Assembly: GCA_002372275.1 (NCBI GenBank)
Contig: DFFP01000025.1
Span: 2,157-66,156 of the forward strand
Length of the DNA stretch: 64,000 nt
Direction of reading: 5' to 3'
DNA from: Alphaproteobacteria bacterium UBA3773
GTDB lineage: Bacteria > Pseudomonadota > Alphaproteobacteria > RF32 > CAG-239
The position numbers were made by a program, and so were the translations under genes. The notes beneath the pieces are model-generated. The model was given only the letters and a program-made list of their open reading frames with translations, was not told the origin of the DNA and ran no database searches. Within the stretch, counting starts at the first letter, position 1; each line of letters starts with the position of its first letter. Shown piece after piece: positions 6,326 to 63,975 of the stretch.

Positions 6326-6343
6326 TATTTTTTCTCCCAACTA

Positions 6344-48300: not shown

Positions 48301-48600
48301 ATGAAAAAAATAGGGATATTTTTTGTTTTGTGGCTTATGGCTTGTACTTACGGAGCAGGCGTTAATGAGAGTTTGACTTATCAATGTGGCGGGCAGATTG
48401 TGGATCTGGTATTTTCAGATGATGAAACGATTGTTATCAATATAAGCGGGCAAAATTATGTTTTAAATCAGGTGAATACTTCGGTTGGTGAGCAATATAT
48501 GAATGAAGAACAAAATATTATGGTTGTTACAGATGGCAATGACGTCTACGTCACAATCAACGGCGTTTCGTTTCCGCAATGCGCGCAAATAACAAAATAA
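48301..48600 (+). CDS. Small lipoprotein, possibly MliC-like (lysozyme-inhibitor fold)
   Basis: The ATG at 48301 gives MKKIGIFFVLWLMACTYG (lipobox LMAC). About 100 aa with YQCGG...VGEQY...FPQC spacing reminiscent of MliC. Weak, motif-only evidence. Confidence 0.4.
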   Translation: MKKIGIFFVLWLMACTYGAGVNESLTYQCGGQIVDLVFSDDETIVINISGQNYVLNQVNTSVGEQYMNEEQNIMVVTDGNDVYVTINGVSFPQCAQITK

Positions 48601-48624
48601 AAAAACCTCCTTATCGGAGGCTTT
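48600..48624. terminator. Hairpin terminator between convergent genes
   Basis: cctcc-ttatc-ggagg. On the minus strand it is followed by TTTTTTT, directly after the stop at 48629. Confidence 0.5.
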
Positions 48625-48628
48625 GTGA

Positions 48629-49390
48629 TTATTGTAAAGGCGGAATGTTGAGCTGAGCAATGGCTCCCGGACGAATTTTAACGCTTGAATAACGCATGTT
48701 GCCCGTTTCAATTACAAAACGTTGACGCCCTGTGAGCTGCGAAGCTAAATCATAAAAATCGCGACCGTTTAATTCTTGACGTTGGGGATTCATGACGTAT
48801 AAAACACACCCTTGCATTTTTTCGGAAACACCGCAGCGCGCACGTCCCTTCGGGACTTCAGGGTTAATCACAACGCCTTGCAAGCCGTTTTGGACGACTT
48901 GATCGCCACCTTTAAAGAAAAGTGCGCCGATAAAAACACCGACAAACAAGCAAAGAAGCGCAATCCAAAGAACTTTCTTTTTTTCTATGGTGCCGTATAA
49001 ATATGAAGAAGATGAGGCGTAAGCTGTTTGATCGGTTTGATTGTAGGCATAAGGGTCATCCTGCACATAATTTTCTTGAGGGGCATATGTGTTTTGAGCG
49101 TTCATTTGAGGCTCATAGTATTGCGGGACATTTGCGCTCATCTGAATGTTTTGTGTATCAGACGGTTCGGCCGATTCGTAGGTAAAAGGGGTGTTATCAT
49201 ATGAGGCATAGTTTTGAGCGTTTTGATCATTGCCTTGCATATCATATGAGGGATTTTGAGGAGCTTGAGAATAGATGTTGGGCGCGCTTTCGGTGCTGAT
49301 CGGTGTGGCATGTTGTTTCGGACGTTTGATTTTTCTTAAACGTCTGTTGCCAACGATTATTTCATCACCTTGATTATAATTTTCAGGCAT
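48629..49390 (-). CDS. Bitopic membrane protein: Q/N/Y/P-rich N-terminus, one TM segment, about 90-aa C-terminal domain
   Basis: AAGGAG Shine-Dalgarno sequence. Low-complexity N-terminal half (QNPSYDMQGNDQNAQNYASYDN...). TM segment VLWIALLCLFVGVFIGALFF. Last gene of the secretin operon. Confidence 0.6.
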   Translation of the reverse strand: MPENYNQGDEIIVGNRRLRKIKRPKQHATPISTESAPNIYSQAPQNPSYDMQGNDQNAQNYASYDNTPFTYESAEPSDTQNIQMSANVPQYYEPQMNAQNTYAPQENYVQDDPYAYNQTDQTAYASSSSYLYGTIEKKKVLWIALLCLFVGVFIGALFFKGGDQVVQNGLQGVVINPEVPKGRARCGVSEKMQGCVLYVMNPQRQELNGRDFYDLASQLTGRQRFVIETGNMRYSSVKIRPGAIAQLNIPPLQ

Positions 49391-49401: not shown

Positions 49402-50649
49402 TTATAAATTGTTCTGTATCATGGCAGATGTTTTCATTGTTTTAATCAGGCGGGGAACCATGAAAACAACTGTTTCGGATTTGGGTTCTTTTTGACCGAA
49501 TAATTCGCCCGGCAACCCGATAATCATAAAGTTTTCGCCAAGTTCATTTCGAACGGAAAAATGTGTGAGTTGACCATCTGTTTTTTCAAGCGTGATGTCA
49601 GATGAAATATGATTATCGGCTTCAACAGAGGCTTTGGCCAAAACGGAAAGTTCCGATTCGGGGCAGGCCATGACACCGCATTTTCCGACATCAAAACGAG
49701 ATAACCATTGATTGGGGACAATAAATTTGCCCTCTGAAACAACTTGGACATTGGCTTTAGAGCCTAAAAACTTTTGAAGCGTTTTGATGTTGATGTCGTT
49801 TGTTGTGGTTAACACGCGACCGATCACACCTGTTTGTGCCGTTGTGATGCTGCCGAAATGAAATTCATCTAAAAGTGCTTTCCACTCGACATCGCACCCG
49901 TCAAACGGCGTGATTTTGAAAACACTGACATCATAAGCAACAAGTATAGGATTTTCTTCAAAGTATTCAATTAGTCTGGATATTTTGTTTTTTAATTCCA
50001 TATCCGCATTAAATGTGACGGAATATTCTGCCCAGTTGGTTGTGATGTTGGTTAAACCGGCACCGCGCAAAACATCTAAAAGCCCTAAAAGAATCGGGCG
50101 TGTTTTCGGAACATAAACAACGTGATCGGCGCGGCGAGATAACGTCATCAGCTTTTTGTCGGCATCGTATGAGTAAAAAACACCGGCAGCTTCGGTCATC
50201 ATGTTCACAATATCGGTTAGTTCGCCTTTTAAATCTTCGCCGGAAATGGAAGCATAGGGCGCATCCTTGGCTGTTAAGGTGATTCCGGCTTCTTTTGTTA
50301 ATTTGACAAGCGCTTGTTCCACAGGCATGGTTTCAAACGTAAAACCGGTGACTTCAAGTTTCGGTAAATCATCGGAGACCTTAACGGGCATAATCTTAAA
50401 TGCCGTGTTGTTAAAAGGAAGCGTTAAAATCATTTGCTGTGTTTCGCTGTTAATATTACAACGAAGGGGCGTTTCTAAATCAAGCGCATTGGCACCGTCA
50501 GGGGTGCGAATGGACATTTCATGCGGTTTTTCAATTTTAACATTAAGTTTTGAATAACTGTCATCTGCTATTTGAGCTTCACTTGGGGCAGTTGTGTGAC
50601 AAGCTGCTAAAAAACTCAAACATAAGAAACTTTCAAACAAACGTTTCAT
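49402..50649 (-). CDS. Short secretin-family outer-membrane lipoprotein
   Basis: Lipobox FLAAC. N0/secretin-N-like PVEQALVKLTKEAGITLTAKD...AAGVFYSYDADKKLMTLS. Secretin-core-like C-terminal half ending FMIIGLPGELFGQKEPKSETVVFMVPRLI. ATGA start/stop overlap with the upstream gene. Confidence 0.6.
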   Translation of the reverse strand: MKRLFESFLCLSFLAACHTTAPSEAQIADDSYSKLNVKIEKPHEMSIRTPDGANALDLETPLRCNINSETQQMILTLPFNNTAFKIMPVKVSDDLPKLEVTGFTFETMPVEQALVKLTKEAGITLTAKDAPYASISGEDLKGELTDIVNMMTEAAGVFYSYDADKKLMTLSRRADHVVYVPKTRPILLGLLDVLRGAGLTNITTNWAEYSVTFNADMELKNKISRLIEYFEENPILVAYDVSVFKITPFDGCDVEWKALLDEFHFGSITTAQTGVIGRVLTTTNDINIKTLQKFLGSKANVQVVSEGKFIVPNQWLSRFDVGKCGVMACPESELSVLAKASVEADNHISSDITLEKTDGQLTHFSVRNELGENFMIIGLPGELFGQKEPKSETVVFMVPRLIKTMKTSAMIQNNL

Positions 50650-51155
50650 TTATTGTCTCCCGTATCTTCAAAGGTCGGCATATTTTCTGCCTGACCGCTC
50701 TCTTTTAATAGTTTGTTGACGACATCATCGATGTTCATACCGGCACCGGCCGTCGGATCATCTGTTTTGCTGAATTCGCCTAAAGCATCTTTCATTTTAG
50801 AAATTTCGTTCGGATCTTGTTTTAATTTGTCGGGTGATGTGTTGCTTTCAAGTTCTTGCTGGTAAACAGCTAAATTTTGTTGCAATGCATTGATTCCGCC
50901 GGCAATCTTGCGCTCAACATAAGGGTATAAGGCCGGTTTTGCTAAAATATAATTTCCGGTGTCGCAAATTTCTTCTAAAACATCTAATACGTAACCGTAA
51001 AAAGGATATTCTTCTAATGCGATATTTCCCATACGAATACAACGTGCGGCAATACGCGAAATGGTGCGCTCGTAATAATCTCTTAAAAGAAGATAATTAT
51101 CAATGTGCCAGATATCTTCTTTTGTGACGACGGATGAATTTTCATTTTGTTCCAT
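50646..51155 (-). CDS. Hypothetical soluble protein (169 aa) in the secretin operon
   Basis: AGAGGA Shine-Dalgarno sequence. No TM segment or signal peptide. Acidic C-terminus. Translationally coupled to the secretin gene. Confidence 0.55.
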   Translation of the reverse strand: MEQNENSSVVTKEDIWHIDNYLLLRDYYERTISRIAARCIRMGNIALEEYPFYGYVLDVLEEICDTGNYILAKPALYPYVERKIAGGINALQQNLAVYQQELESNTSPDKLKQDPNEISKMKDALGEFSKTDDPTAGAGMNIDDVVNKLLKESGQAENMPTFEDTGDNK

Positions 51156-51215: not shown

Positions 51216-53279
51216 TTATGCTTTATCCTCTTTGTTGTCGCTGTTAAGCTGATTGACAAGAGAATCGGTGTTTTCCTGATTTTGATCTGCAAACTGTGCA
51301 AGTAGTGCATCTGTATCCATTGCGTCTTCAGGCGCAGATGTGTTGCCATTATAGTTATCAGCAAACTCTGCAAGCAGGGCGTCACTGTCTAAGTTTTCAT
51401 CAGAGACCGGTATATTTTGATCATCAGGGTAAGAAAACTGACTTAACAGAGAGTCGGTATTATCGTTATTTTGATCAGTATATTGCGCAAGAAGAGCGTC
51501 ACTGTCTAACGCTTCATCTGAGGCCGGTAGATTTGGATCATTTTGAGAAGCAAATTGATCTGCAAAGTTCAGATTATCGTTATTTTGATCAGCATATTGT
51601 GCAAGCAGTGCGTCACTGTCTAACACTTCATCTGAGGCTGGTAGATTTGGATCATTTTGAGAAGCAAATTGATCTGCAAAGTCCGGATTATCGTTATTTT
51701 GATCGGCATATTGTGCAAGAAGAGCGTCACTGTCTAACACTTCATCTGAGGCCGGTAGATTTGGATCATTTTGAGAAGCAAATTGATCTAAAAGATTATC
51801 CATATGATCTGTTTCACTTGAAAAAGGCGTATCTGTTTGATCAGGGTTTTGATTGATTTGGGTGTCATAGTTGAATTGCTCGTCCGGTAAAGAGGAGTCT
51901 GATGTGATGTTGTAAGAATCACTTGCAGTATCATAAGAATTGATATCACTTGTCGTATCTTTATAAGGTAATGGATCTTGAGGGGCTACATCAGATGTGT
52001 TTGTCTCTTGGGGTAAAATTGTATCCGATGGCTCTTCAACATATTCCCATTCACTGTCATCATCGGAATCATCATCGGAATCTTCAATATACTCCCAATC
52101 CCAATCTTCATCGTTGTTGGAAGAATTTGAAAGTTGTTCCGTATTTTGTACATTAGAAGAGAATTCTGAATTTGTGGGCTGATTTTTTTCTTCAATCGGT
52201 GGTAAATCGTTGAGATCAGATTTTAAGGTTTCTGTTTGTGAATGGTCATTTAAGGACACAGGCGTGTCTGTAAAATCATCAAGCGAAACAGGTGTTTGGT
52301 CTATTTCAGGTACTGTGTTTTTTTCAGAAGACGATTTAAGCGTTGTGAAAATCTTTTTTGTTAAATTAAAAATGCTGTTTTTTGTTTCAGAACCTGTTTC
52401 TGAAACACTCGAATTTTCTTTTGTTTTTTCTTTTAAATCGGTCGATTTTTGATTATCGGAATGATTTGTTGCCGATATGGAAGAATCTTGTTTATTGTTA
52501 TCCTTATTCTTTTCTTTCTTGTCTTTTTTATCTTTTTTCTTATTTTTTTCGTTCTTTTTATTTTCGAGCGCGCTTTCTTCTTCGATTTCTTTTTCAACTT
52601 TTTCTTCAATCGGATCTGAAGCAACTTGCTTGTCTTGTATGATATCTTTTTCTTGTTCATCTTCCGGTTTCGGCGTTGGTTTGTTTTCCGGCTCATCTAA
52701 AACAGGGTTTATGTTTTTTTCAGCTGCAACGGTTTGCACGGCGACAGCTTGGGCACTTAATGCTTCTTTTAAGGTGTTTGCAATATTTTCTTGAGAACGC
52801 ACCATCATTTCAAAGAGCATTTCCATATCTTTAGCATGTTGAAGCTCGTTTTGTTTTAAAATACTTAAAATATCGCTGCTGATGGCATTACTGCTTGCAC
52901 TCACTTCAGGATTTTGAACATTTTGTTTGATATTGGATTCTTTTTCTTTGGTTTTCACAGATGATTGAAAGTTATGATCAACTGATGGTTTGGCCAAATC
53001 ATAGTTTTTGAAAGATGATTGAGTGTGTTTTTGATTTTCTTTTTCTTCAAGGTTTGCAATATGGTCAATTAAAATTGATCCGCCGGGCAGTGTGCTCAGT
53101 AAAATGCGTATGTTAGATGGAAGCTCTAATAATGAATCATCGAACTCTTTTTTTCTTTTATCGTTAAAAATATGAATTTGATGGAAAATATTAAGGTATC
53201 TTTGAGCAACTAAAATGGGATCTTCGTTGCCTTCATGGGTCCCCGTAAATTCTGCATCCTGGTTTAATTCATCTGACAT
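51216..53279 (-). CDS. Large, highly acidic low-complexity protein with C-terminal 38-aa tandem repeats
   Basis: 687 aa. About 100-aa ordered N-terminal domain (ILVAQRYLNIFHQIHIFNDKRKKEF...), Lys-rich patch (NKKKDKKDKKEKNK), Asp/Glu/Asn/Ser-rich middle, and repeats DQFASQNDPNLPASDEVLDSDALLAQYADQNNDN. Confidence 0.7.
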   Translation of the reverse strand: MSDELNQDAEFTGTHEGNEDPILVAQRYLNIFHQIHIFNDKRKKEFDDSLLELPSNIRILLSTLPGGSILIDHIANLEEKENQKHTQSSFKNYDLAKPSVDHNFQSSVKTKEKESNIKQNVQNPEVSASSNAISSDILSILKQNELQHAKDMEMLFEMMVRSQENIANTLKEALSAQAVAVQTVAAEKNINPVLDEPENKPTPKPEDEQEKDIIQDKQVASDPIEEKVEKEIEEESALENKKNEKNKKKDKKDKKEKNKDNNKQDSSISATNHSDNQKSTDLKEKTKENSSVSETGSETKNSIFNLTKKIFTTLKSSSEKNTVPEIDQTPVSLDDFTDTPVSLNDHSQTETLKSDLNDLPPIEEKNQPTNSEFSSNVQNTEQLSNSSNNDEDWDWEYIEDSDDDSDDDSEWEYVEEPSDTILPQETNTSDVAPQDPLPYKDTTSDINSYDTASDSYNITSDSSLPDEQFNYDTQINQNPDQTDTPFSSETDHMDNLLDQFASQNDPNLPASDEVLDSDALLAQYADQNNDNPDFADQFASQNDPNLPASDEVLDSDALLAQYADQNNDNLNFADQFASQNDPNLPASDEALDSDALLAQYTDQNNDNTDSLLSQFSYPDDQNIPVSDENLDSDALLAEFADNYNGNTSAPEDAMDTDALLAQFADQNQENTDSLVNQLNSDNKEDKA
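51453..51788 (-). repeat. In-frame 114-bp tandem repeat (three near-identical copies, with degenerate copies continuing to about 51219)
   Basis: The DNA repeats with a 114-nt period (gcgtcactgtctaac...gatcattttgagaagcaaattgatctgcaaag...). It encodes three 36-38-aa units plus two degenerate DSDALLA(Q/E)(Y/F)AD units. Confidence 0.85.
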
Positions 53280-53362
53280 ATTGATTTGCCTTTAAAATAT
53301 AGCTTAAGCCCTACATGACAAGCATATTAGTGAAATAAGGGTAAATTTCAAGTTAATATTAT

Positions 53363-53393
53363 AAAAAAAACACCTGTGAAAAGGTGTTTTTTT
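53363..53393. terminator. Hairpin terminator after the XRE regulator gene
   Basis: aaaaaaaacacct-gtgaaa-aggtgttttttt lies directly 3' of the stop at 53398 and is flanked by A and T runs. Confidence 0.55.
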
Positions 53394-53397
53394 ATCT

Positions 53398-54375
53398 TTA
53401 TAAGTCAATGGCAACTACTTTGTGTAAGTTTGTCAGATTGCTGTTGTCTATTTCAATTTTTTCATCCGGATTGAAACGCAAGCCGTAAAGCTGTCCTTTC
53501 TCATCTTCTCGGATACAAATAAACATTGCCTCTTCTTCTGAAATGTAATACAACGCAATGTCTCCGACGCTGACGGATTCTTGCGGATCAATAAATAACA
53601 CAGCACGATTGGAAAGAATATTGCCAAGTCTTCTGGTACATAAATTGACGGCATAGGCATCACGCTTGTTCATTAAACGGAAAGGACAAACAACTTCTTT
53701 GGCTTCTTCATCATCCATATCAATCAAAATATTTCCGTTGCTTGAAGGAGTTCCGAATACTTTCATTAACGGCATTTCACCCGTATAAACACCATACATG
53801 GAAACATGGCTGCCTTTCGGGGTGGCAAGAGATTTGTATTTAGCGTCTGTTTTTTCCATAATCTCATTGAGCTCGCCGGCGTCTTTTAATTTTTGAATTT
53901 CTGATTTTAAGGCATCAGGAGCTAAAGAAAGGGCTTTAGCGATATTTTTAAATTCTTTGTCGGATACTTCACGTTGGCCCATCTCAATACGGTGATAAAC
54001 AGATAATGTCATATCGGCGTTTTCGGCAACTTCAATAAGCGTTAAATCACGAATTGTTCTTAAACGGCGCAAAGCTGCACCTAAAACTTTTAAGCCGGCA
54101 TCTGTGTTGATTTTGTTACGTCTTTCTTGTTCACGACGCCAACTTTGAACAACTTCTTCTTTGGAGTTTTGTTCGTTAACATATAAATCTTGCAAAGAGC
54201 AATTTGTAAGCTCGGCAACGGAAATCAGTTGTTCCTGGCTTAAACGGCGATAACCCTTTTCAATTTTGGAAACAGCAGATAAACTGACACCTAAATGGTC
54301 GGCCAAAGCTTGCATTGAAACGCCTTTTCTCTTTCTTTGGAGCCTAATCTGATTTGGAAAAATAATCTCTTCCAT
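53398..54375 (-). CDS. Dual-HTH XRE-family transcriptional regulator with degenerate S24/LexA-like C-terminal domain
   Basis: HTH1: IRLQRKRKGVSMQALADHLGVSLSAVSKIEKG. HTH2: LRRLRTIRDLTLIEVAENADMTLSVYHRIEMG. The C-terminal beta-rich domain has GDIALYY where S24 proteins have GDIV, but no GDSM Ser or obvious Lys. Confidence 0.75.
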   Translation of the reverse strand: MEEIIFPNQIRLQRKRKGVSMQALADHLGVSLSAVSKIEKGYRRLSQEQLISVAELTNCSLQDLYVNEQNSKEEVVQSWRREQERRNKINTDAGLKVLGAALRRLRTIRDLTLIEVAENADMTLSVYHRIEMGQREVSDKEFKNIAKALSLAPDALKSEIQKLKDAGELNEIMEKTDAKYKSLATPKGSHVSMYGVYTGEMPLMKVFGTPSSNGNILIDMDDEEAKEVVCPFRLMNKRDAYAVNLCTRRLGNILSNRAVLFIDPQESVSVGDIALYYISEEEAMFICIREDEKGQLYGLRFNPDEKIEIDNSNLTNLHKVVAIDL

Positions 54376-54407
54376 AACAACCTCTTTATGACATTAAAAA
54401 CTAACTC

Positions 54408-54479: not shown

Positions 54480-57400
54480 TTAGCTTCCAGAATCAGGATT
54501 TTCGTTTGTTCCTTCCCAGCGGCTTCTGTATTCTTCACGCTGTTGTTCTTCTTGTTCGCGACGTTGTTCTTCTTGTGCACGTTCTTCTTGATCAGAAATC
54601 GCAAAATTTAAAAATTCTTCTAAAGTTGTTTTTTCGTGCTTGTTTCTCTGATTCTTACGCTCATTTTCTTGTTTGGCAAAGGCAACGCGATCTTCATCCG
54701 TTAAACCCCACATGGCAGAATTTGGATCAATGGAGGGGGCAAATCGGCCAAGCTGACCGCCAAAGTTCATCAGGTTTTGAACACTGCTGTTACGCACAAA
54801 TCGCTCATCGAAATTGTAGTGTGAAACAGCCTCTTTCCCCTCTTGTTTGGTCGTGGTACGCCGGACAACACCATTGTCGGTAATTTGTGTAATATTACCG
54901 TTTTTATCGGCCGTTCGCATGTGTATGAGCATTTGTCCGTTGAGAATTTCGCTGGTAACTACGGTTTGAGAACCATCGTTATTTATTTGTGTGATAATGG
55001 TTTTGCCGTCTTGATGAATGGTTTCGCGCGATTGAAATGAATTGGCAATATCCATATGCCTGTCTTTCATCACGGTGTGCATAATAGCCTCGTTCACCAG
55101 TTCTTGGGATAATCCGGTGTTTTGTCTTAAGTTTTCAATTAATGACATATTCAGTCTTCCGTCACGCTGAACAATATACTTATCGGCATCCGTTTTGAAA
55201 GCAAAATCGCGATGGACAATGTTGCCGTTTTGGTCTGTGACATTGCGAACTGCAAAAAATTGATCTTTTTGAACTGTATCTTGGAATTTGGGCGCACCTG
55301 ACAAATCTGTTTGATGATGTGCCCCGTAAGTGTTTGCAAAACTTTCAAGCTTGCTTCCTTTAGACGCAAGGGAGGCAAGGATTTTTGCTCTGAGAGATGC
55401 TGTGGATTTAGTCATCTCATATCCGCCAGCTGCGTTTTGCTTGATGTTCAGTGTTACTTGGCGTCCTCTTAAATTATGATGTGTGACATTAGCGCTGATG
55501 AGATTATGATTTTGATCAAACACTGTTTCGTTAAAGCCCCCGGAATGATTACGACGCGAAATCACCGTGTTTCCATCGGCATCGGTTGTTTTTTTAGCAA
55601 TCACTTCGCCTTTAGCATTGGTCATGGTGATGTTACCGTTTTCATCTTTATTGATGGTTCGTATAAGTTCACCGTTTTCGTTGAAAATTTGCTGTGTTTT
55701 TCCGTCGGCAGAGGTCGTTTGACTTTGACCGTTTTCAAGTTTCCCATTCAATAAATCTTCAACTTTTGCGGTGTTTGATAGGGTATTTGATAAACGTGCC
55801 TGATTAACTAAGCCTTGCGCGGCCCCTTTGATTTGTTCTTTAATACTGTGTTGTTGTTCGGAATATGAAAATGAGCCGTCTTTGTTGAGCATGGCAAAGC
55901 GCGTTGTTTTATGTGGGTTTAATTGATCAAAAAGTTTGTTTCCTTTGCCTTGACCGACATCTAATTTGTACCCGATAATATTGCCTTGATCATCTTTAAT
56001 GGCCTCACCGTTCTTTTTGACATTTTCCATCTTTTTTGCTATTCGGCGATTGCGGATAGGTGTGCCGATATAATAGCCACCTGCTGCCCAGCCGAATTTG
56101 CCTAGCTCTTTGCCTATGCCTAAGACGCCGCCGGAGCGTTTACCCGTTTCTTCATCTTTACCGCCTAAAGCTACTCTTTCAGCCGCTTGGGCAAAGAAAC
56201 CGCCTGTTTTACGGCCAATATCTAAATCCGGCGCTTTGGCAAATTCACCGGCTAATTTTGTTCCGTTATCTAAAAAGACCCAGCCGAGTAAACATATGGT
56301 CATTAGTTTAATAAAATTTACACCCCAAAAAGCAAGGCCCGTGAGCGGACTGACGATTTTTTTATAATCCGTAGCGTACGCATCAAGGCCTGAAAGGAGA
56401 TCTTGCGTGGCTTGCAAAATGATGTATAGAATAATACTTAAGAAAACAAATTGGAACATGGCGTTCATAAAGTAATCCCATATTTTTTTGAGGTATGAGG
56501 CTTGTTTTGGAAAGGCCCATGCACCAATGGCTGCCGGCATTAAGGCAGAGGCAATGGCCATGTTTAAGACGCAATCAATCAAGCACCATGGAAACGCCAA
56601 GACTAAAATCAGGCCGCCAATCATCAGAAGAAGACCGGTTAAGACATAGCCGGGGTTGGGGAGCATACCAAAAATAATTTTTTCGATGTACACGCCGATA
56701 CACACAACTTCTCTGCCGAATGCGACAATTTTCCAGACACCATCTTGCATGGTCTTGATGGCACATAAGATGTTTTGCCCCATGGAAACGGGCAGTGCGC
56801 CTTGTGATTTGTCGGTTAATTCTTTGTCATATCCCATTAAACCTTCCATATAAGAACCGGAACATTTGGTTTCAGTGGAAATGGTTTGAGCATAGGCCAT
56901 TCCTGTGTTGAAAACAGGGGCAAGAGTTAGTCTTAAAATATGAGCATAACTGACACGTAAAATCAAGACAACAAGCAAAACACGAAAGGCCTGAACAAGC
57001 CATTCTTGAATCATCTTTGAGGGTTTAACGGCTTGAAGTGCAGCAATATTTTTCAAAACAAATAAACCGGTCCAGAGCGCAAAGAAAATGACAACGACGA
57101 CCGCAATGCCGCCGGCTAATGTTTGATATGCTTTTTGTGCCAGACGACTTGCCGTGTTAAATAAAACCTTAAATATAGGACAAAAATAGCATTTGTCGCT
57201 ATCGGGCATATATTGGTGCCACTCACAGTCATTATTTGTTGTTTGAGCCATGCCTTCGCCTGCCGGAGTTTCGGTAATACCTGCCGCGTATGCAACACTT
57301 TTGCTTTGCTGAGCCGCGTCGCTTAAGGTTTCACGCGGTTCTCCCTCTTTTTTATCAAGACATTCTTCTGTTGAATAATCTTCAGATCCTCCGCCGCAAA

Positions 57401-58190
57401 GACTTTGAATATCTTCACATAAAGGATCAATTATGGATGATTTAATTGCTTGGTAACCTTTTGAAAAATCGCCGCTGTGAATTTCAAAATGAAGGTGCGG
57501 ACCATAAGGTTTACAAGGACCGTCCGGATAAGGATAGTCGCAAAGGGTGTTTGTGGCTGTGTGGTAGTTTGAACCGCCGACATGTCCGATCGGATCGCCT
57601 TTTTTGACATGACCTCCTGTTTTAATGTAATCTTTTAAGTGAAGATAAACTGTGACATATTTATTATCACAAGAGCCGGATGAACCTTTGGCCGAACACT
57701 TACATGCTTTGGTGTGTTCGATCATGATGGCACGTCCACCACCGCCTAAGGGTTTTGCCCAGACGATGTTGCCGTCAGCCGCGGCTGTGACAAGTGTGCC
57801 GGCATCGGCAGCATAGTCTGTGCCGAGGTGATTACGCGGTTTCGGGTTGCCACCGGCACCATTTGCACGATAACAGTTTGTTTCGGCAACTCTGTTAATT
57901 TTTGAAACAGGCATGGTATCTAGGCACGAACATGACTGCGCATTTCTGTTCATAATACACGCCGTGTCGACATCGTTTCGTTTGCCACTCGGACATGTTT
58001 TTTCAAGCTTGCCGCCGGAAGTTGAAAGCGTACATGTCCCGTTTGAACAATCTTTGCCGCCGCAAGAATCACCTGATGAAGAACGAGATGAAAAGTCAAA
58101 AAGCTGTGCACAGGCCAAATGGCTGTTTTCCACCATTAAGAACATGAAAAACAAAGAAAAAAACAAGTAATGTGATTTAATTTTTTTCAT
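54480..58190 (-). CDS. M23 peptidase / VirB6(TrbL)-like polytopic membrane protein fusion with long YD-like C-terminal extension
   Basis: Signal peptide. M23 motifs NHLGTD (HxxxD) and GPHLHFEIH (HxH) at aa ~105-255. VirB6-like TM core at aa ~320-640 (DKCYFCPIFKVLFNT, LMPAAIGAWAFPKQASYLKKIW). Hydrophilic tail of about 590 aa. Confidence 0.7.
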   Translation of the reverse strand: MKKIKSHYLFFSLFFMFLMVENSHLACAQLFDFSSRSSSGDSCGGKDCSNGTCTLSTSGGKLEKTCPSGKRNDVDTACIMNRNAQSCSCLDTMPVSKINRVAETNCYRANGAGGNPKPRNHLGTDYAADAGTLVTAAADGNIVWAKPLGGGGRAIMIEHTKACKCSAKGSSGSCDNKYVTVYLHLKDYIKTGGHVKKGDPIGHVGGSNYHTATNTLCDYPYPDGPCKPYGPHLHFEIHSGDFSKGYQAIKSSIIDPLCEDIQSLCGGGSEDYSTEECLDKKEGEPRETLSDAAQQSKSVAYAAGITETPAGEGMAQTTNNDCEWHQYMPDSDKCYFCPIFKVLFNTASRLAQKAYQTLAGGIAVVVVIFFALWTGLFVLKNIAALQAVKPSKMIQEWLVQAFRVLLVVLILRVSYAHILRLTLAPVFNTGMAYAQTISTETKCSGSYMEGLMGYDKELTDKSQGALPVSMGQNILCAIKTMQDGVWKIVAFGREVVCIGVYIEKIIFGMLPNPGYVLTGLLLMIGGLILVLAFPWCLIDCVLNMAIASALMPAAIGAWAFPKQASYLKKIWDYFMNAMFQFVFLSIILYIILQATQDLLSGLDAYATDYKKIVSPLTGLAFWGVNFIKLMTICLLGWVFLDNGTKLAGEFAKAPDLDIGRKTGGFFAQAAERVALGGKDEETGKRSGGVLGIGKELGKFGWAAGGYYIGTPIRNRRIAKKMENVKKNGEAIKDDQGNIIGYKLDVGQGKGNKLFDQLNPHKTTRFAMLNKDGSFSYSEQQHSIKEQIKGAAQGLVNQARLSNTLSNTAKVEDLLNGKLENGQSQTTSADGKTQQIFNENGELIRTINKDENGNITMTNAKGEVIAKKTTDADGNTVISRRNHSGGFNETVFDQNHNLISANVTHHNLRGRQVTLNIKQNAAGGYEMTKSTASLRAKILASLASKGSKLESFANTYGAHHQTDLSGAPKFQDTVQKDQFFAVRNVTDQNGNIVHRDFAFKTDADKYIVQRDGRLNMSLIENLRQNTGLSQELVNEAIMHTVMKDRHMDIANSFQSRETIHQDGKTIITQINNDGSQTVVTSEILNGQMLIHMRTADKNGNITQITDNGVVRRTTTKQEGKEAVSHYNFDERFVRNSSVQNLMNFGGQLGRFAPSIDPNSAMWGLTDEDRVAFAKQENERKNQRNKHEKTTLEEFLNFAISDQEERAQEEQRREQEEQQREEYRSRWEGTNENPDSGS

Positions 58191-58194
58191 AGTT

Positions 58195-60288
58195 TTATTC
58201 CTGACTTTCCTCTTTTTCTTTTTTCTCTTCCCAATCTGCCCATTCTTTTTGTCTTAAGTATTCTTCATTTGCTTTGGGTTTGTTGTTCTGCATGGCATCG
58301 CCCGTGCCTTCTAAAATTTTTCCGGGAACTTTCCATACATTTCCGACACCTTTAAGGAATTTATCACCGTATTTTTGAGTGTATGCCTCTCCATAATCTA
58401 GGACATTTTTGACGACAAATTTGGTGCGCCTATAACCATTTCTAACAGATTCACGAAGATCTACACCATTTTGAAGAGCTTTACTTGAAGCATTAATTGC
58501 TCCATTAACAATTATATCCGGTGTTTTTAAGGCAGCATTAGCAATTTTTAAGTGGGTTGTGGAAGCGACCGACGCAACTTTCGATGCAGTTCTGTAAAAA
58601 CTTGTTGCTATGTTACGGCGAATGCGTTTTTGTGCCCAATTAACCCATCCGTCTTCAGATTTTTCAGCTAATTTTCCATTATTGATGCGATCAACGTTTC
58701 TGTTTGCCCAATTAGCAATTTTTTGAGTTCTTCCTTCCAACATATTACTGAGTTTTTCTGAACTTTTATGGCGCCATTTGGCTAATTTATTTTCTGAAAA
58801 CGCTTGTTTTATTTCTTCTGCTTTATTGTTAATTTTTTGATTTAGATCGTTTAGAGGACCTTTTTTAAGCAATTTTCTATCAAGCGAATCCTTGAGAATT
58901 TCAAGTTTTTCATTTGCCTCTTGTTGATTTTGAGCATGCCACTCGGCAGCTTTTTGAGGGATATCCAGCACGCCGGAATTGTTAATGGCTTGCCTCAAAG
59001 CTGACGGATTGGCGTTTCTTTGTGCTTCATTTTGACGAATCTGGGCATTGATATTGTCTATATTGTTTTGGTAATTTTCTTTTTTTGTTTGTGCCTGTTG
59101 GGCAACAGTTTCGTTGGCAGCATTTTTTTGTTCGGCAACGTGTGCTTGAAAAGCTTCTCTTCCCTCGCCGGAGAGTATGGCTGAACCAAGGGTGCTTTTA
59201 AGCCCGAATTTAATATTATTACCTCTTTGCTTAAAATATTTTTCTACGGAAGCGCCACCGCTTCTAAGATTTGCTAATGCCTTCTTGCTTGTTTCTTTCG
59301 GATTTCGAATGGCAACGCCTGCCTGATGTATACCGCTTTTGATTTGATTATGATATTTCCCTTGTATGAGTTTTCCGGTACCTGATACAACGTGTCCGCC
59401 TAAATTGTTTACAACATCACGTGTATAGGCGGCCACAGGTGCCACGGCTTTTTGTTTGACAAAGTCAACGCCTTGGGTTGAGAGCATATGCATTGGTGAG
59501 GCTTTTGAGCCTTTACCAAACATTTGATCGGGGAAAAATTTGTCAACATAATCCGGAATGGTGGATCCAATCATTTTCATGCCATAAATGAGGACAACAA
59601 CAATAAGTAAAAATGTACCGGAAGTAAGTGAAAATGTTTCAGAAACAAATGTCGTTTTATTGTGTGTTAAGGCATCCATAATAGGTGGAAGAGCACCTAA
59701 AGCTTCAATCAGCATATTTAATGCATAGGCGGTTGTGATGGAAAGAAAAACAAGAATGCCGGCACTTTTTAAGAAAACACTGATACAAACCATGAGTTTG
59801 TCTTTGGTCCATGAAAACGGCCATAAAGCAATTGCAATCGGCAGAACGATAATTGAAAAACCCAATTTAAATGAAACATCTACAATATAAAACGTGACAC
59901 TTAACACGAGCATAAATCCGAAACAATAAACAATTGCACCGCAAAGCCATATCGGAATGTTTGCCCAATCAAAAAGATGGATACCTAAAACTGTAGCCTC
60001 CCACGGATCACCATAAACAGCATGACACATTAAAGTATCTCCTAAGACCTGGATACTTATCAGGTTATCCGAAATATTTTGAACGCTGTTTGAAAAATTA
60101 TTTAACAAGCTTATGGGGATAATACTGCCTTTTAAGGAAACATCTTGGAATGTAGGCTTAGCTTTTGCTTTAAGAACTGCACATTTACTTTGTTTTTCAG
60201 ACCTCGAAAGAGCATAACCCTCAGAAGTCGGCAAAACAAAAAAGGTTGTTAAAATAAGTAAAAGAAATATGCATATCTTTTTAACCAC
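58195..60288 (-). CDS. VirB6(TrbL)-like protein, C-terminal half of the TM core plus long basic/coiled extension
   Basis: GTG start preceded by GGAGGA. TLMCHAV...FYIVDVSFKLGFSIIVLPIAIALWPFSWTKDKL aligns with the second half of the 458-aa paralogue. About 430-aa hydrophilic tail. Confidence 0.65.
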   Translation of the reverse strand: MVKKICIFLLLILTTFFVLPTSEGYALSRSEKQSKCAVLKAKAKPTFQDVSLKGSIIPISLLNNFSNSVQNISDNLISIQVLGDTLMCHAVYGDPWEATVLGIHLFDWANIPIWLCGAIVYCFGFMLVLSVTFYIVDVSFKLGFSIIVLPIAIALWPFSWTKDKLMVCISVFLKSAGILVFLSITTAYALNMLIEALGALPPIMDALTHNKTTFVSETFSLTSGTFLLIVVVLIYGMKMIGSTIPDYVDKFFPDQMFGKGSKASPMHMLSTQGVDFVKQKAVAPVAAYTRDVVNNLGGHVVSGTGKLIQGKYHNQIKSGIHQAGVAIRNPKETSKKALANLRSGGASVEKYFKQRGNNIKFGLKSTLGSAILSGEGREAFQAHVAEQKNAANETVAQQAQTKKENYQNNIDNINAQIRQNEAQRNANPSALRQAINNSGVLDIPQKAAEWHAQNQQEANEKLEILKDSLDRKLLKKGPLNDLNQKINNKAEEIKQAFSENKLAKWRHKSSEKLSNMLEGRTQKIANWANRNVDRINNGKLAEKSEDGWVNWAQKRIRRNIATSFYRTASKVASVASTTHLKIANAALKTPDIIVNGAINASSKALQNGVDLRESVRNGYRRTKFVVKNVLDYGEAYTQKYGDKFLKGVGNVWKVPGKILEGTGDAMQNNKPKANEEYLRQKEWADWEEKKEKEESQE

Positions 60289-61042
60289 CGCTTCCTCCGT
60301 TGATATATGTTTGTACTATATTGTTTCCGAGTGCTGAAACGGAATCGGCTACATCAATACCCATTTCTAGAATAGGAACGAGTGTGTAATGTAAAATAGT
60401 GGACATGCCGGAATTAATAATCACAAGAGCCAATACAACCTTAAAGCATTGAACAAAAAATTCTTGCAAAAGTTTCATCGGTTCAACGGAAGTAAACGCT
60501 GTGACATTTTTGAAAACAAAAAAAGCCAGCCAGATCATCATACACACAAGTGCAACCGCATTGGCTGCCTGCCGGGATATATCATAGGCATGGGAAGCTG
60601 CTGTGATAAAGGCAGAGATAAGAGTTTTAATAATAATGCAACCGTAACAGGTGGAATATTTTATAAAGAAATTTGACGCAATACACTGTTTGCCTCTTCG
60701 GTGTGAACCTTCTATAAGACCAAGGTACCCGTTGTAGGTGTCACCTGAAATACCGCCATCTTTTGCATGTGAACAATCACCCGAAGGTTTTGATGACGAG
60801 CAATAAAAAACTTCTTTGTGCTTTTGTTGAATACACAGTGTCCACATGTTACATTCCCACTCATGGCATTTATAACATTTGTTGTCTTTTAGATTACACA
60901 TGTTCATATCGCCATCATCCTTCATACCGCATACAACTTCGACTTTTCCGCTTGAGGGATCGGGCATTAAACGCTGAGATAAAGCAGGTTTTGAACTTAA
61001 GATTAACAAGAAGAGAAGAATATGAAAGAAGATATGTTTCAT
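60281..61042 (-). CDS. VirB6(TrbL)-like protein, N-terminal half only (Cys-rich periplasmic region plus first TM segments)
   Basis: Signal peptide and Cys-rich region. STCYGCIIIKTLISA and FVFKNVTAFTSVEPMKLLQEFFVQCFKVVLALVII align with the first half of the paralogues. Ends GGSGG and overlaps the next ORF by 8 nt. Confidence 0.6.
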   Translation of the reverse strand: MKHIFFHILLFLLILSSKPALSQRLMPDPSSGKVEVVCGMKDDGDMNMCNLKDNKCYKCHEWECNMWTLCIQQKHKEVFYCSSSKPSGDCSHAKDGGISGDTYNGYLGLIEGSHRRGKQCIASNFFIKYSTCYGCIIIKTLISAFITAASHAYDISRQAANAVALVCMMIWLAFFVFKNVTAFTSVEPMKLLQEFFVQCFKVVLALVIINSGMSTILHYTLVPILEMGIDVADSVSALGNNIVQTYINGGSGG

Positions 61043-61043
61043 T

Positions 61044-62357
61044 TTATTCTCTCCCTGCCAGTTTGTTCATGCGCTCTTGCATTTCTTGTTTCATATGTTG
61101 AGCTTTTTCATGAATCTCTTTTAACTTTTGATTTTTATCAATAACGGATGTAAATACTTTGCTTGCGCCTGCAGTAAAGGAAGAAAGAACTTTTTTAGCA
61201 GCAGAAGCTGCCGCTTTTGCAATTTTCTTTTGGAAATCTGTTCCGGCACCGCCGCCGACAAGTGTGCCCGCTAAGGCAACCGAAATTTCAATACTCTTTA
61301 AAACCAAAAATCCGATTAAAATGAGTGATAATGGCATAATCCCGGCATCAGTAAAGTTTTCGGTTATAAAAAGATCGTAGTTGTTAAGTATAATCATTTG
61401 CATTGCGGCCAGCGACATAGAAACCATAATGGCTATAAATGCCATAATAGCCGCCGAATTTAAAACTGATACAAAACCTGTTTTCGTCCATTTTCGGCTG
61501 AATTTGAACGGATAAGCCATAATAAAACAAGGAAGAAGTATTAACATAATTGTCATGCGGAAAATACTATCGATGATATAAAAAACAAAATCAAGTTTTA
61601 CAATAGCAAAAATGGCAAATAAAATAATCCCGCAAACAACAGAGGATAAAGAGGCAATACCTAAAAGTTTTGTTGCAAGTTGAAAACCGATGTTCATACG
61701 ATCGTTAACCGCACAGGTCAAACACTGCATCATAAAAGAAGGACCTTGCGGAAAATGATTGGCATCGACAACTTCCAAAGCAGGAGGTTCGCATACAATC
61801 GGTTGATCATAAATGAGGCAAAAGCCGTCTTCTTCGTTTCCGAGATATATACCGTCGCTATTACCGCCAAGTTGCATTGAATTTAAGACAGCCCCTCCAT
61901 ATTCTAAAAAAGCGTAGTATATCGGAAAAACGAGTTTATTTAAGACAAACATTAAAAATCCGGTCTGTGAGGCCAATATACCGCAGACAAAGCACGTGAA
62001 AAACATACGCGTTATTTCAGTCCAGACTTCAGAAATGTTTTCAGGAACAACCGATGAAACGTGTTTCAAAAGTCTGATGGAAAGCCAGACAGCAAAGGCC
62101 ATCATCATAAACGGCATGGCACTTTTGGTCACTTTCGGGTAGGCGGCCATGGCTGCTTTTCCCATAACTCTATAAAACGCACTTAAGATGGATGCTTGCC
62201 AACAAGTACGTTGCTGCTCATCCAAATCACTTTCTTCGCCGGCAACAGGCTCATCTTTAATAAGCCCCTCGTCGTTACAAGCTGTTAACATCATAACGGA
62301 ACAGACAATCATTAAGATTGTTCTTAAAAATTTGAATATGTTTTTTTTCTGTTCCAT
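61044..62357 (-). CDS. VirB6(TrbL)-like polytopic membrane lipoprotein
   Basis: Lipobox MLTAC. TM core with MMQCLTCAV and LLPCFIMAYPFKFSRKWTKTGF. Gly/Ala-rich then coiled C-terminus. Confidence 0.65.
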   Translation of the reverse strand: MEQKKNIFKFLRTILMIVCSVMMLTACNDEGLIKDEPVAGEESDLDEQQRTCWQASILSAFYRVMGKAAMAAYPKVTKSAMPFMMMAFAVWLSIRLLKHVSSVVPENISEVWTEITRMFFTCFVCGILASQTGFLMFVLNKLVFPIYYAFLEYGGAVLNSMQLGGNSDGIYLGNEEDGFCLIYDQPIVCEPPALEVVDANHFPQGPSFMMQCLTCAVNDRMNIGFQLATKLLGIASLSSVVCGIILFAIFAIVKLDFVFYIIDSIFRMTIMLILLPCFIMAYPFKFSRKWTKTGFVSVLNSAAIMAFIAIMVSMSLAAMQMIILNNYDLFITENFTDAGIMPLSLILIGFLVLKSIEISVALAGTLVGGGAGTDFQKKIAKAAASAAKKVLSSFTAGASKVFTSVIDKNQKLKEIHEKAQHMKQEMQERMNKLAGRE

Positions 62358-62405
62358 GTTTCCTCGTTTTTATTTTTTGTATATTTGTCAGATTTGAATG
62401 ATATT

Positions 62406-63782
62406 TTATGTTGTCCCGCCGGAACCACCTGAGCCTGAGCCGGAGCCACCTGAGCCTGAGCCGGAACCACCTGAGCCTGAGCCGGCAAATTTAGCACGCG
62501 CTGCATCGTTTCGGGCTGCGATTCGATCTTTTACACCCTTCATTGCACCTGTGGCTCCCGTGACATCTGCGATACCTTTTGCGGCACTCGTTGTCGCGCG
62601 TTTGGCTACTTGAGCTGCCAAACCACCAATCTTACCACCGATGTTTGTGCCGCCTGAGGTACCTGAAATATCATTAGCTAACTGATTAATTTGTTCAATC
62701 AATTTGAAAGCAAAAATACATGAGGCAATCAATACTAAAAATTTACCATTACCGAAGTCAAAAACACTTTTTAATTCATCGACCCTATCACTGTCAATAA
62801 GATCCATCAGGTCATCTGCTGTCATACCGCCACCGCTTAAGGCCTGCATCACCAGTTCGGTAGTAAGCGAAATCACAAGCCCCATCATAATAAAGTTAAA
62901 GGCTGTGTTCATAAAAATATCCCAACCGGCTTTGGTGTATTTTGCTGTGACCTTAAACGGCCATGCGGCAATTAAAAAAGGAAGTAACGTGCAGAAAATA
63001 CCGAAACGCACAACCGAGTCTAAAAGATAAAAACAAGCAGCCAGTGAAATCATCCAGCCAAATCCGTACACAACAAGGCCTTGGATAAACATACTGATGT
63101 CTATCAAAAATTCAGCAGCACGGTGTGTCGAAGCGCACATTAAAGCGGTTCCGACAGCAGGGAGTGTTGCGGTTGAATTGCTGAAAGTTTTAATAGCACC
63201 TTTGACCTGAGCCATCAAATCTACAGAAATGACACCTTTTTGCATTTCAGATTTAGCAGCTTCTGTAGCACTTTGCATGGTGCTTAAAGCCTCTTCATCA
63301 ATAATGGTCAAACCAAACTCAAGAGAAGCTGACATTAAAGGATTGATGATATAGTGATAGGCAAAATTGGAATTTGTCAGAAAAAGCGCTGCAACCAAAG
63401 CCTTGAATGCCTGAAATAAAATGCTTTGCAGATATTTACCTGTATCTTGCTTTGTCAGCGCGGTGACAGTGATTAATGTTTGATAAGCAATAAAAAGCGC
63501 CATTACCACGATCACAACGTTTCGAAAACTGGCAGCAAGAGCACTAAATGAGCTGGTCGCCATGGCTTGATCGGTGTTTAAAATGACCTGAAACACAGGG
63601 CAGAGAATACATTGACCGATGTCAGACATAATTTCGGGTACTTTACGGCAATCGTCAGCAAAGACTTGGCCTGTGTATAAAAGTGCCGTTGTAAATACTA
63701 ACATAAAACAAACAAAAGACAAAGAAGATAAAGAACATCTCTGTTTGATGTTATTGATTATACTGTTTATTTTATTTTTCAT
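62406..63782 (-). CDS. VirB6(TrbL)-like polytopic membrane protein with Gly/Ser-repeat C-terminus
   Basis: GQCILCPVFQVILNT, ALMCASTH, YLLDSVVRFGIFCTLLPFLIAAWPFKVTAKYTKAGW. C-terminal GTSGGTNIGGKIGG...GSGSGGSGSGSGGSGSGSGGSGG. Confidence 0.7.
   Translation of the reverse strand: MKNKINSIINNIKQRCSLSSLSFVCFMLVFTTALLYTGQVFADDCRKVPEIMSDIGQCILCPVFQVILNTDQAMATSSFSALAASFRNVVIVVMALFIAYQTLITVTALTKQDTGKYLQSILFQAFKALVAALFLTNSNFAYHYIINPLMSASLEFGLTIIDEEALSTMQSATEAAKSEMQKGVISVDLMAQVKGAIKTFSNSTATLPAVGTALMCASTHRAAEFLIDISMFIQGLVVYGFGWMISLAACFYLLDSVVRFGIFCTLLPFLIAAWPFKVTAKYTKAGWDIFMNTAFNFIMMGLVISLTTELVMQALSGGGMTADDLMDLIDSDRVDELKSVFDFGNGKFLVLIASCIFAFKLIEQINQLANDISGTSGGTNIGGKIGGLAAQVAKRATTSAAKGIADVTGATGAMKGVKDRIAARNDAARAKFAGSGSGGSGSGSGGSGSGSGGSGGTT
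62415..62483 (-). repeat. In-frame Gly-Ser microsatellite-like repeat
   Basis: ccgccggaaccacctgagcctgagccggagccacctgagcctgagccggaaccacctgagcctgagcc: imperfect 18-nt period encoding (GSGSGG)n at the extreme C-terminus. Confidence 0.8.
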
Positions 63783-63975
63783 GTTCTTTATCCTTGTTTT
63801 GGTCTGCTCTTAAAAAAGGAATACCAAGTACCTTTACAGCTGCCGCGATGGCAATACACAAAAAGATAAAGCTTGTCCATATAAAAGCGGTACTTGATAA
63901 AATGTCAAAAACCTTAAACCGAATTAAAAGTAAAACGGCTCCGAAAAGTAAAAATGTTATCAATACCGATTTCAT
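63772..63975 (-). CDS. Small two-TM membrane protein at the head of the VirB6-like array
   Basis: 67 aa with two hydrophobic segments. AGGAAAAAG Shine-Dalgarno sequence. Its 3' end overlaps the next gene by 11 nt. No VirB2 or VirB3 motif recognised. Confidence 0.45.
   Translation of the reverse strand: MKSVLITFLLFGAVLLLIRFKVFDILSSTAFIWTSFIFLCIAIAAAVKVLGIPFLRADQNKDKEHEK

Follow-up and report, generated by a model that had tools for sequence, protein, structure and literature searches.

Secretins are the shared outer-membrane gate of type II secretion systems (T2SS), type III secretion systems (T3SS), type IV pili (T4P), and filamentous phages, which raises the question of what a secretin gene does when none of these systems is encoded beside it. 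We asked this of a 415-amino-acid (aa) protein encoded on the minus strand at positions 49402-50649 of a 64,000-nucleotide stretch of Alphaproteobacteria bacterium UBA3773 (GenBank assembly GCA_002372275.1, contig DFFP01000025.1, positions 2,157 to 66,156 of the forward strand; the whole stretch is called the window here). An earlier reading of the sequence without database searches (the sequence-only reading) had interpreted it as a short, lipidated secretin resembling those of type IVb pili or phage pIV, and had recognised no T2SS, T3SS, T4P, or Tad partner genes around it. We conclude that the gene encodes a genuine, strongly diverged, miniaturised secretin of the BfpB/TcpC/PilN-like lipoprotein lineage, and that it seems from profile alignments to lack both gate hairpins. 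Our preferred reading, to which we give a probability of about 0.6, is that of a diverged gate-less liposecretin of a four-gene operon that serves the dispersed type IV secretion system (T4SS)-like machine of its clade and not a pilus.

A diverged lipoprotein secretin that curated profiles miss

Read from the window sequence, the minus-strand open reading frame (ORF) at 49402-50649 translates to 415 aa, in which we distinguish the following parts:

49402..50649, minus strand: short lipoprotein secretin, 415 aa, stop codon at 49402-49404 (ORF, AlphaFold2 model, Foldseek, hhalign)
50599..50649, minus strand: signal peptide and lipobox, residues 1-17, LAAC with Cys17 (read from the sequence)
50356..50598, minus strand: pre-N0 tether, residues 18-98, a variable linker and then a highly conserved IRTPDGANALDLETPLRC...LPFNN (conservation)
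50113..50355, minus strand: N0 domain, residues ~99-179 (AlphaFold2, partial Foldseek matches, high-confidence hhalign columns)
49903..50112, minus strand: N3-type ring-building domain, residues ~180-249 (AlphaFold2 secondary structure; aligned to the N3 region of the A2 relatives defined below)
49405..49902, minus strand: shortened secretin beta-domain, residues ~250-415, or ~250-405 as judged from conservation and the model (hhalign gaps, BfpB-A2 alignment, AlphaFold2)

The N-terminus carries MKRLFESFLCLSFLAAC with the lipobox LAAC, the protein contains FTFETMPVEQALVKLTKEAGITLTAKD, and its C-terminal end carries FMIIGLPGELFGQKEPKSETVVFMVPRLI; each of these features, and the 415-aa frame with its FLAAC lipobox, had been quoted by the sequence-only reading and is present in the ORF. 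In an alignment of 36 homologues with 54-85% identity to the window secretin (A1), 115 columns are invariant, the mean column identity is 65%, and Cys17 is invariant in 36/36, so the gene is under strong constraint and is no chance ORF. A word-indexed search returned 905 homologues, all unnamed or annotated "hypothetical" and all from gut or rumen metagenomes or from metagenome-assembled genomes (MAGs) of an "Alphaproteobacteria bacterium", and a scan of the one-genome-per-species GTDB collection gave 246 stretches that encode a relative. The family is thus one that Pfam and NCBIfam miss and that is annotated as hypothetical throughout an abundant uncultured gut lineage.

Sequence searches against curated families returned nothing: Pfam gave no match to PF00263, PF03958, or STN at E≤1, NCBIfam gave zero family matches at E≤1 (the PilN model TIGR02520 included), and searches of PDB sequences with the single sequence (phmmer) or with the family profile gave zero matches at E≤10. 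Three independent lines of evidence nevertheless establish homology to secretins. For the fold search, we used an AlphaFold2 monomer with a mean predicted local distance difference test score (pLDDT) of 74 and a predicted TM-score (pTM) of 0.69. All 32 of its Foldseek matches in the PDB at E≤1e-3 are secretins, headed by the type IVb pilus secretin BfpB (9u5s, 2.1e-10) with PilQ next (7e-10), and InvG, GspD, XcpQ, pIV (7ofh, E 4e-5), and RcpA are also matched; lower-ranked partial matches cover N0/N1 domains of PilQ, EscC, GspD/XcpQ, and DotD. The TM-scores of these matches are low, which is no surprise for a monomer model set against subunits of multimeric structures. The second line is a phmmer search of 1.84 billion representative proteins, which gave 175 matches. 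The longer, more distant matches lie at E 1e-15 to 1e-5; nine matches were checked (E down to 3e-5), and all nine carry PF00263 above its gathering score; the PF00263-positive matches include P0200, P0206, P0211, P0214, and P0220 (E 4e-15 to 6e-10) as well as one protein that additionally carries TcpQ and STN domains. The third line is profile-profile alignment. Against the PF00263-positive lipoprotein secretins reached by phmmer (A2), A1 aligns over its full length (324 columns) with an hhalign probability of 99.85 and an E of 6.5e-31, and a set of more diverse short-type relatives with 20-41% identity to the reference sequence P0124 (A3) aligns with a probability of 99.95 and an E of 3.6e-38, reaching the closing motif. 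The A2 profile in turn matches BfpB, its best PDB match, at 2.9e-31.

The sequence-only reading had proposed PF00263 and PF03958 as its first check and had named the lack of a secretin profile match as evidence against it. These matches are lacking, yet they are false negatives: the alignment of a single hidden Markov model (HMM) to the A2 relatives halts exactly at RFDVG, at the edge of the apparent gate-1 deletion described below, and Pfam fails on the secretin because the alignment breaks there. The AlphaFold monomer that had been proposed as a further check bore the reading out, as did the phmmer and hhalign results, which place the protein in the BfpB/PilN-like lineage. We conclude that the protein very probably forms a secretin-family outer-membrane ring.

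Both gate hairpins seem to be absent

BfpB consists of an LG tether, N0, N3, and the secretin domain, without N1/N2, S domain, or pilotin (PMC12531336), and the window secretin has the same order of tether, N0, single N3, and beta-domain, again without N1/N2. Like BfpB, TcpC, and R64 PilN, it has its lipobox Cys at the N-terminus and neither a pilotin nor an S domain. The sequence-only reading had noticed an N0/secretin-N-like unit behind the lipobox; we distinguish an N0 domain, with the topology beta-alpha-beta-beta-alpha-beta-beta in the AlphaFold2 model, and one N3-type domain. The tether is modelled with low pLDDT over residues 16-57 and holds the most conserved block of the secretin in A1, IRTPDGANALDLETPLRC...LPFNN; we infer that it takes the position of the BfpB LG domain.

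The beta-domain retains its lip, the strands of both the outer and the inner barrel, and the closing motif ETVVFMVPRLI, but it is ~70 residues shorter than in the A2 relatives and measures ~155 aa as against ~240 in BfpB, with the C-terminal outer-barrel segment trimmed. Three gaps of ~20 residues each recur in all three hhalign alignments: right after the conserved RFDVGK motif (RFDVGKC in the window secretin), between TLEKTDGQ and LTHFSVRN, and ahead of the closing motif. In BfpB, gate 1 comprises residues 406-430 and gate 2 residues 461-479, and the inner barrel is formed by residues 393-405, 431-460, and 480-492 (PMC12114550). Mapped through the A2-BfpB alignment, the first two gaps fall on gate 1 and gate 2 and spare the inner-barrel strands on either side, and the AlphaFold2 model has only tight hairpins or turns at both positions. 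Judged from these alignments, both gate hairpins seem to be absent. The length deficit between confident anchors stands wherever the gaps are placed, and the deletions are common to relatives of only 20-40% identity, indicating that they are ancient and maintained. The C-terminal half is the secretin core that the sequence-only reading had recognised as far as homology through the closing motif is concerned, but it departs from that pattern at the gates, which are missing in the alignments.

Two further Cys residues that BfpB does not have, Cys64 in the tether and Cys324 in the gate-1 stump, are both invariant in A1 and A3, and a disulfide between them is a conceivable possibility. The f1 phage secretin pIV (7ofh) is similar in overall size and has the same N0-N3-secretin layout; unlike the window secretin, it is unlipidated, retains its two gates, and has the pI ATPase gene as a neighbour.

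Every solved secretin has, to our knowledge, a two-hairpin gate, and gate mutants of pIV and PulD are leaky. A conserved family in hundreds of gut and rumen species that appears to do without gate hairpins thus poses the question of how its pore stays sealed, and permanent occupation of the pore by a partner is the most likely answer. Searches of the literature turned up no account of a secretin that is gate-less or linked to VirB6, and the best reading of the short secretin is that of an undescribed gate-less liposecretin.

The secretin belongs to a conserved four-gene operon

The secretin is the third gene of a co-directional four-gene operon that encodes, in order, an acidic protein, a 169-aa protein that we call p169, the secretin, and a bitopic protein. 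We compared it across 82 related loci (L numbers designate individual loci); the upstream side was compared in 53 related loci with at least 7 kb of flank there. The remaining features of the operon are:

51216..53279, minus strand: operon gene 1, acidic repeat-rich protein of 687 aa, N-terminal domain of ~90 aa conserved
50646..51155, minus strand: p169, 169-aa protein without signal peptide, the upstream partner in 82/82 loci
48629..49390, minus strand: bitopic inner-membrane protein, 253 aa, in 78/82 loci
48602..48624, minus strand: terminator-like hairpin directly 3' of the bitopic gene, operon end
53294..53393, minus strand: palindromic A7/T7 hairpin after the helix-turn-helix (HTH) gene that lies upstream, and two promoter-like sites upstream of the acidic gene (consensus matches only)

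The last of these is likely the start of the four-gene transcription unit. The p169 stop overlaps the secretin start by 4 nt, and 11 nt separate the secretin from the bitopic gene. p169, which is present at every one of the 82 loci, has no Pfam match, and a profile search of the PDB gave nothing below E 0.5 for it; the acidic protein, which lacks a signal peptide and whose N-terminal region is conserved in 58 of the related loci, matches no Pfam family. The acidic protein also includes near-identical in-frame repeats of a DSDALLAQYADQN module. In the bitopic protein, a Q/N/Y-rich cytoplasmic N-terminus and one transmembrane helix are followed by a conserved C-terminal domain in the periplasm (~95 aa, two invariant Cys), which AlphaFold2 models as beta-alpha-alpha-beta (pLDDT 85). 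We considered a GspC-HR/PilP-like docking domain here and rejected it, as Foldseek gave no match at E≤0.001; weak LysM-like rows (probability ≤0.18) are a lead only.

The partner domains recur beside family members of only 30-34% identity. Immediately upstream of the secretin, the distant loci L087 (within a 345-aa protein), L088 (within a 397-aa protein), L089 and L094 (as a ~100-aa p169-like protein), and L095 encode a p169 domain, and the bitopic C-terminal domain is conserved in L095 and in L088, where it forms part of a 289-aa protein directly after the secretin. This recurrence identifies p169-secretin(-bitopic) as a conserved core, which extends well beyond the gut/rumen clade. In L089 and L094 the secretin is followed by lolC/E-lolD. 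These two loci (L089:4034-7293, L094:10001-13328) come from a distant lineage labelled Rickettsiales, their secretins are 59% identical, and the arrangement of lolC/E-like and lolD genes directly after the short secretin is conserved between both; these lol genes encode the ATP-binding cassette transporter for lipoprotein sorting.

Same-sample metatranscriptome contigs match 51375-51579 in the acidic gene (exactly) and 53976-54381 in the HTH gene and none lies on the secretin; as they cover parts of those two genes only, they are uninformative on secretin expression either way.

Type IV secretion genes adjoin the operon and its relatives

We scanned ~50 ORFs of the window with Pfam and found no T2SS, T3SS, T4P, or Tad gene among them, and no match to T2SSE, T2SSF, pilin, prepilin peptidase, or Zot families, in agreement with what the sequence-only reading had stated for operon and window. 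The secretin is an orphan with respect to these systems only, since the gene sits in a VirB6 context and ancestrally beside VirB10/VirB11. A VirB6/TrbL-like gene array, co-directional with the secretin, starts ~3.8 kb upstream of it, a link that the sequence-only reading had not made:

53398..54375, minus strand: dual-HTH XRE-type regulator between the VirB6 array and the secretin operon (Pfam HTH_3 twice)
54480..63782, minus strand: VirB6/TrbL-like membrane protein gene array (Pfam, orthologue, synteny)
54480-58190, minus strand: array gene encoding an M23 peptidase-VirB6 fusion (Pfam Peptidase_M23 1.7e-17, TrbL 0.0057)
58195-60288, 60281-61042, 61044-62357, and 62406-63782, minus strand: further array genes

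The orthologue of the array's 437-aa paralogue in L086 has a precomputed PF04610 TrbL match. Among the 53 loci with enough flank, 51 have the VirB6/TrbL-like array and the HTH gene upstream of the operon. At ten loci, moreover, a convergent VirB11 gene follows right after the bitopic gene, with the gene for a giant VirB10 before it. A maximum-likelihood tree, rooted on distant members, places these ten loci as the basal grade of the gut clade; the crown group, the window included, is without the VirB10-VirB11 arrangement. Given this basal placement, embedding of the operon between the VirB6 array and VirB10-VirB11 is probably the ancestral state. The giant VirB10 proteins (1,420-1,789 aa; L056:12882-18251, minus strand, and also L034, L036, L073, and L079) have their TrbI domain near the C-terminus, behind long beta-flower/RHS-repeat regions. 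Upstream of them, in the usual place of VirB9, stands a beta-flower/RHS protein of 962-1,146 aa; a VirB9 sought in the 1113-1146-aa protein at this position gave no CagX match and no PDB match.

The closest full-length relatives, P0220 (L090) and P0211 (L096), are themselves encoded between VirB9 and VirB10. The gene order of L090 is VirB3-VirB4-...-VirB8-VirB9-secretin-T2SSE-T2SSF-pilin-like genes-VirB10-VirB11, and L096 follows the same order, beginning with two TrbC/VirB2 genes. These composite operons, in which the VirB set is ordinary apart from the inserted genes, span L090:131-21989 and L096:1230-21575, and we found no description of such a hybrid T4SS/T4P-like arrangement. Both proteins, from Alphaproteobacteria MAGs, are the closest PF00263-positive relatives of the window secretin (phmmer E 1e-11 for P0211 and 6e-10 for P0220; hhalign probability 98.6-99.9, with A1 against P0220 at 98.6 and E 1.4e-15), and they share with it the lipobox, a collinear N0-N3-beta-domain, and the setting among VirB genes. 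They score as MshL/PilN-like in NCBIfam. They exceed the window secretin by 100-250 aa and have retained the two gate segments, and T2SSE, T2SSF, and pilin-like genes directly follow them where the window secretin has p169 and the bitopic protein as neighbours.

The outer-membrane core of T4SSs is made of VirB7/VirB9/VirB10, and we know of no secretin that is part of the Rickettsiales rvh T4SS or of any described T4SS. In Pfam, the window secretin has no CagX (VirB9) or TrbI (VirB10) match and is no member of the T4SS outer-membrane core families. In being a lipoprotein that has an N0-type fold and is encoded among T4SS genes, it resembles Legionella DotD (PDB 7mud chain Ad) and Xanthomonas VirB7, although the Foldseek match of its N0 part to DotD is weak (TM(target) 0.40-0.46 over ~80 residues, E ~1e-2) and DotD and VirB7 are small proteins that lack N3 and barrel domains. 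The rvh system also has a tandem array of extended VirB6-like genes, T4SS genes in dispersed islets, and a separate VirB10-VirB11 unit (PMC2653234); what differs here is the secretin operon between the VirB6 array and, ancestrally, VirB10-VirB11. The secretin may work with a T4SS. Its repeated embedding in VirB gene sets, together with relatives between VirB9 and VirB10, points to a link between T4SSs and a secretin/T4P-like module of which we found no description.

The clade's type IVb pilus has a secretin of its own

GCA_947588655.1, a related MAG from the same clade, carries the short-secretin module (L086) and a complete type IVb pilus (T4bP) operon (L091) ~20 kb apart on one contig of 91 kb. 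Besides a 514-aa protein and a TcpQ-domain protein, the T4bP operon encodes a PilN-family secretin of 539 aa (PF00263; TIGR02520 at 275 bits), PAP_PilO, a PilP-like protein, T2SSE, T2SSF, and a bundlin-type pilin; it spans L091:3099-14334, with a convergent gene for a 320-aa T2SSE-family ATPase. Because a PilN-type secretin is thus already encoded in the T4bP operon on the same contig, the short secretin is a second secretin, and an hhalign probability of 2.7 between A1 and the clade's own PilN indicates that it is no recent copy of it. For the window's own genome, a PilN-type secretin would be an extrapolation from relatives, as would VirB4, VirB8, VirB9, and VirD4. The short-secretin operon differs from the BfpB and TcpC systems in that its four genes include no TcpQ/BfpG-like partner and that no pilus ATPase, platform protein, or pilin is linked to it; the secretin further departs from the type IVb liposecretins in having neither a PF00263 nor a TIGR02520 match. 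Of the 53 loci with enough flank, L016 alone has T2SSE/T2SSF/pilin genes in the vicinity of the short-secretin operon, and there pntAB and one more gene lie between the operon and the T2SSE/T2SSF pair. A search of plasmids gave one weak match, a Rhodoferax conjugative-plasmid secretin in a T4bP-like cluster.

Which machine the secretin might serve

Under our preferred reading, the secretin would multimerise into an outer-membrane ring or channel tethered by its N-terminal lipid, the bitopic inner-membrane protein would reach its periplasmic N0/N3 rings, and a partner would fill or close the ungated lumen, since a pore without a gate of its own should be occupied or closed by something else. 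The best candidate for this partner would be the dispersed rvh-like T4SS with its VirB6 array and giant VirB10. We give a T4SS-linked role as such close to an even chance. A more specific form, in which the ring is held by the bitopic protein, is a structural part of the type IV secretion machine that provides or reinforces its passage through the outer membrane, is plugged by VirB10 or a T4SS stalk, and descends from VirB-secretin-T2SSE/F operons like those of L090 and L096, is tentative, with the odds against it. If true, such a T4SS-secretin hybrid would join two classes of secretion system thought to use unrelated outer-membrane cores; only a secretin that turned out to be a T4SS component would make the finding categorically new.

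Several observations weigh against the preferred reading. The link to the T4SS is one of gene neighbourhood only, and the 51 loci that show it belong mostly to one clade and are not independent events. Three distant short-type members are without any T4SS gene within 10 kb (L088, which is surrounded by housekeeping genes, and L089 and L094, which adjoin lolC/E-lolD), and the four-gene operon has been relocated away from the VirB6 array in L009 and L016, in the latter to 4.5 kb from T2SSE-T2SSF-pilin genes. For the protein itself, the curated secretin HMMs all fail on the 415 aa, and the gate-loss call depends on profile alignments at ~20% identity, with hhalign column confidence that is low around gate 1 and good around gate 2.

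There are two other explanations, both of which we consider improbable. The short secretin could be the outer-membrane pore of the clade's type IVb pilus, encoded apart from it and perhaps used as an alternative channel for particular pilins. Its lipoprotein (type IVb) lineage, with BfpB as the best fold match, suits such a role, as do the clade's conserved T4bP ATPase, platform protein, and bundlin-type pilin and the position of T4bP genes 4.5 kb upstream of the operon in L016. However, the T4bP operon already comes with a PilN-type secretin and TcpQ, on one contig with the short secretin, which did not arise from that PilN by recent copying; only L016 among the 53 loci with enough flank has a T2SSE/T2SSF pair near the short-secretin operon, that operon lacks a TcpQ/BfpG-like gene, and a double gate loss is not known in pilus secretins; together these make a pilus pore a poor prospect. 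The p169-secretin-bitopic trio could instead be a self-contained envelope module, a conduit that might be passive or plugged by a partner and might serve uptake or the acidic repeat protein, whose proximity to VirB6 is an inherited accident or reflects shared regulation. This would account for L088, where p169 and bitopic C-terminal domains accompany the secretin without T4SS or T4P genes within 10 kb, for L089 and L094, which are flanked only by a p169-like gene and lolC/E-lolD, for the promoter-like sites and terminator of the operon's own, and for its relocation as a unit in L009 and L016. What speaks against a self-contained module is that the trio encodes neither an energy source nor a substrate, that p169 and the acidic protein have no signal peptides, and that the T4SS association appears at two evolutionary levels (VirB6 and VirB10/11 in the gut clade, VirB8/9 and VirB10 in the full-length relatives); we therefore hold it to be unlikely.

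Two further possibilities are effectively excluded. That the protein is a decaying secretin remnant without current function, as its shortened beta-domain and the failure of curated HMMs might suggest, is very hard to reconcile with an ORF that is intact in hundreds of lineages, with the 115 invariant columns and 65% mean identity of A1, with deletions that are shared by 20-40% identical relatives and thus ancient and maintained, and with the translational coupling of the secretin start to p169. The chance that it is the pIV-type export secretin of an integrated inovirus is slighter still: the size is near that of f1 pIV, pIV is among the fold matches (7ofh, E 4e-5), and one "Bacteriophage sp." record in GenBank encodes a protein of 55% identity, but this record is an unverified virome scaffold with the chromosomal VirB6-HTH-acidic-p169-secretin-bitopic block, neither the operon nor the window contains a Zot/pI-like or other phage gene, and the synteny is fixed and origin-proximal across the GTDB one-per-species relatives.

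Other features of the window and of related records

The record MT835708.1 ("Bacteriophage sp.") includes the upstream VirB6 array as well. Public records assigned to Lachnospiraceae, Eubacteriales, Bacteroidaceae, [Ruminococcus] gnavus, and "Bacteriophage sp." carry the alphaproteobacterial secretin block (L021, L043, L044, L047, L050, L093), and these six look mis-binned or mislabelled.

At the upstream end of the VirB6 array, the gene for a 67-aa protein with two transmembrane helices (63772-63975, minus strand) runs into the start of the first VirB6-like gene; before it, past the end of the window, comes the gene for a 283-aa protein without a recognised family (L083:984-1835), and the block ends at an rRNA operon, seen in the relative L086, where assemblies break. 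On the other side, a small lipoprotein gene (48301-48600, plus strand) converges on the secretin operon, with a Pfam match to MliC (membrane-bound lysozyme inhibitor) of 22.6 bits against a cut-off of 22 (E 1e-4). The remaining genes of the window are origin-proximal housekeeping genes (gyrB, rho, parAB, gidAB, mnmE, mutS, sucCD, sufS) and RND pumps, and among the housekeeping genes lie two that encode BspA-type leucine-rich-repeat proteins (PF13306), at 5417-6340 on the minus strand and 25859-26713 on the plus strand.

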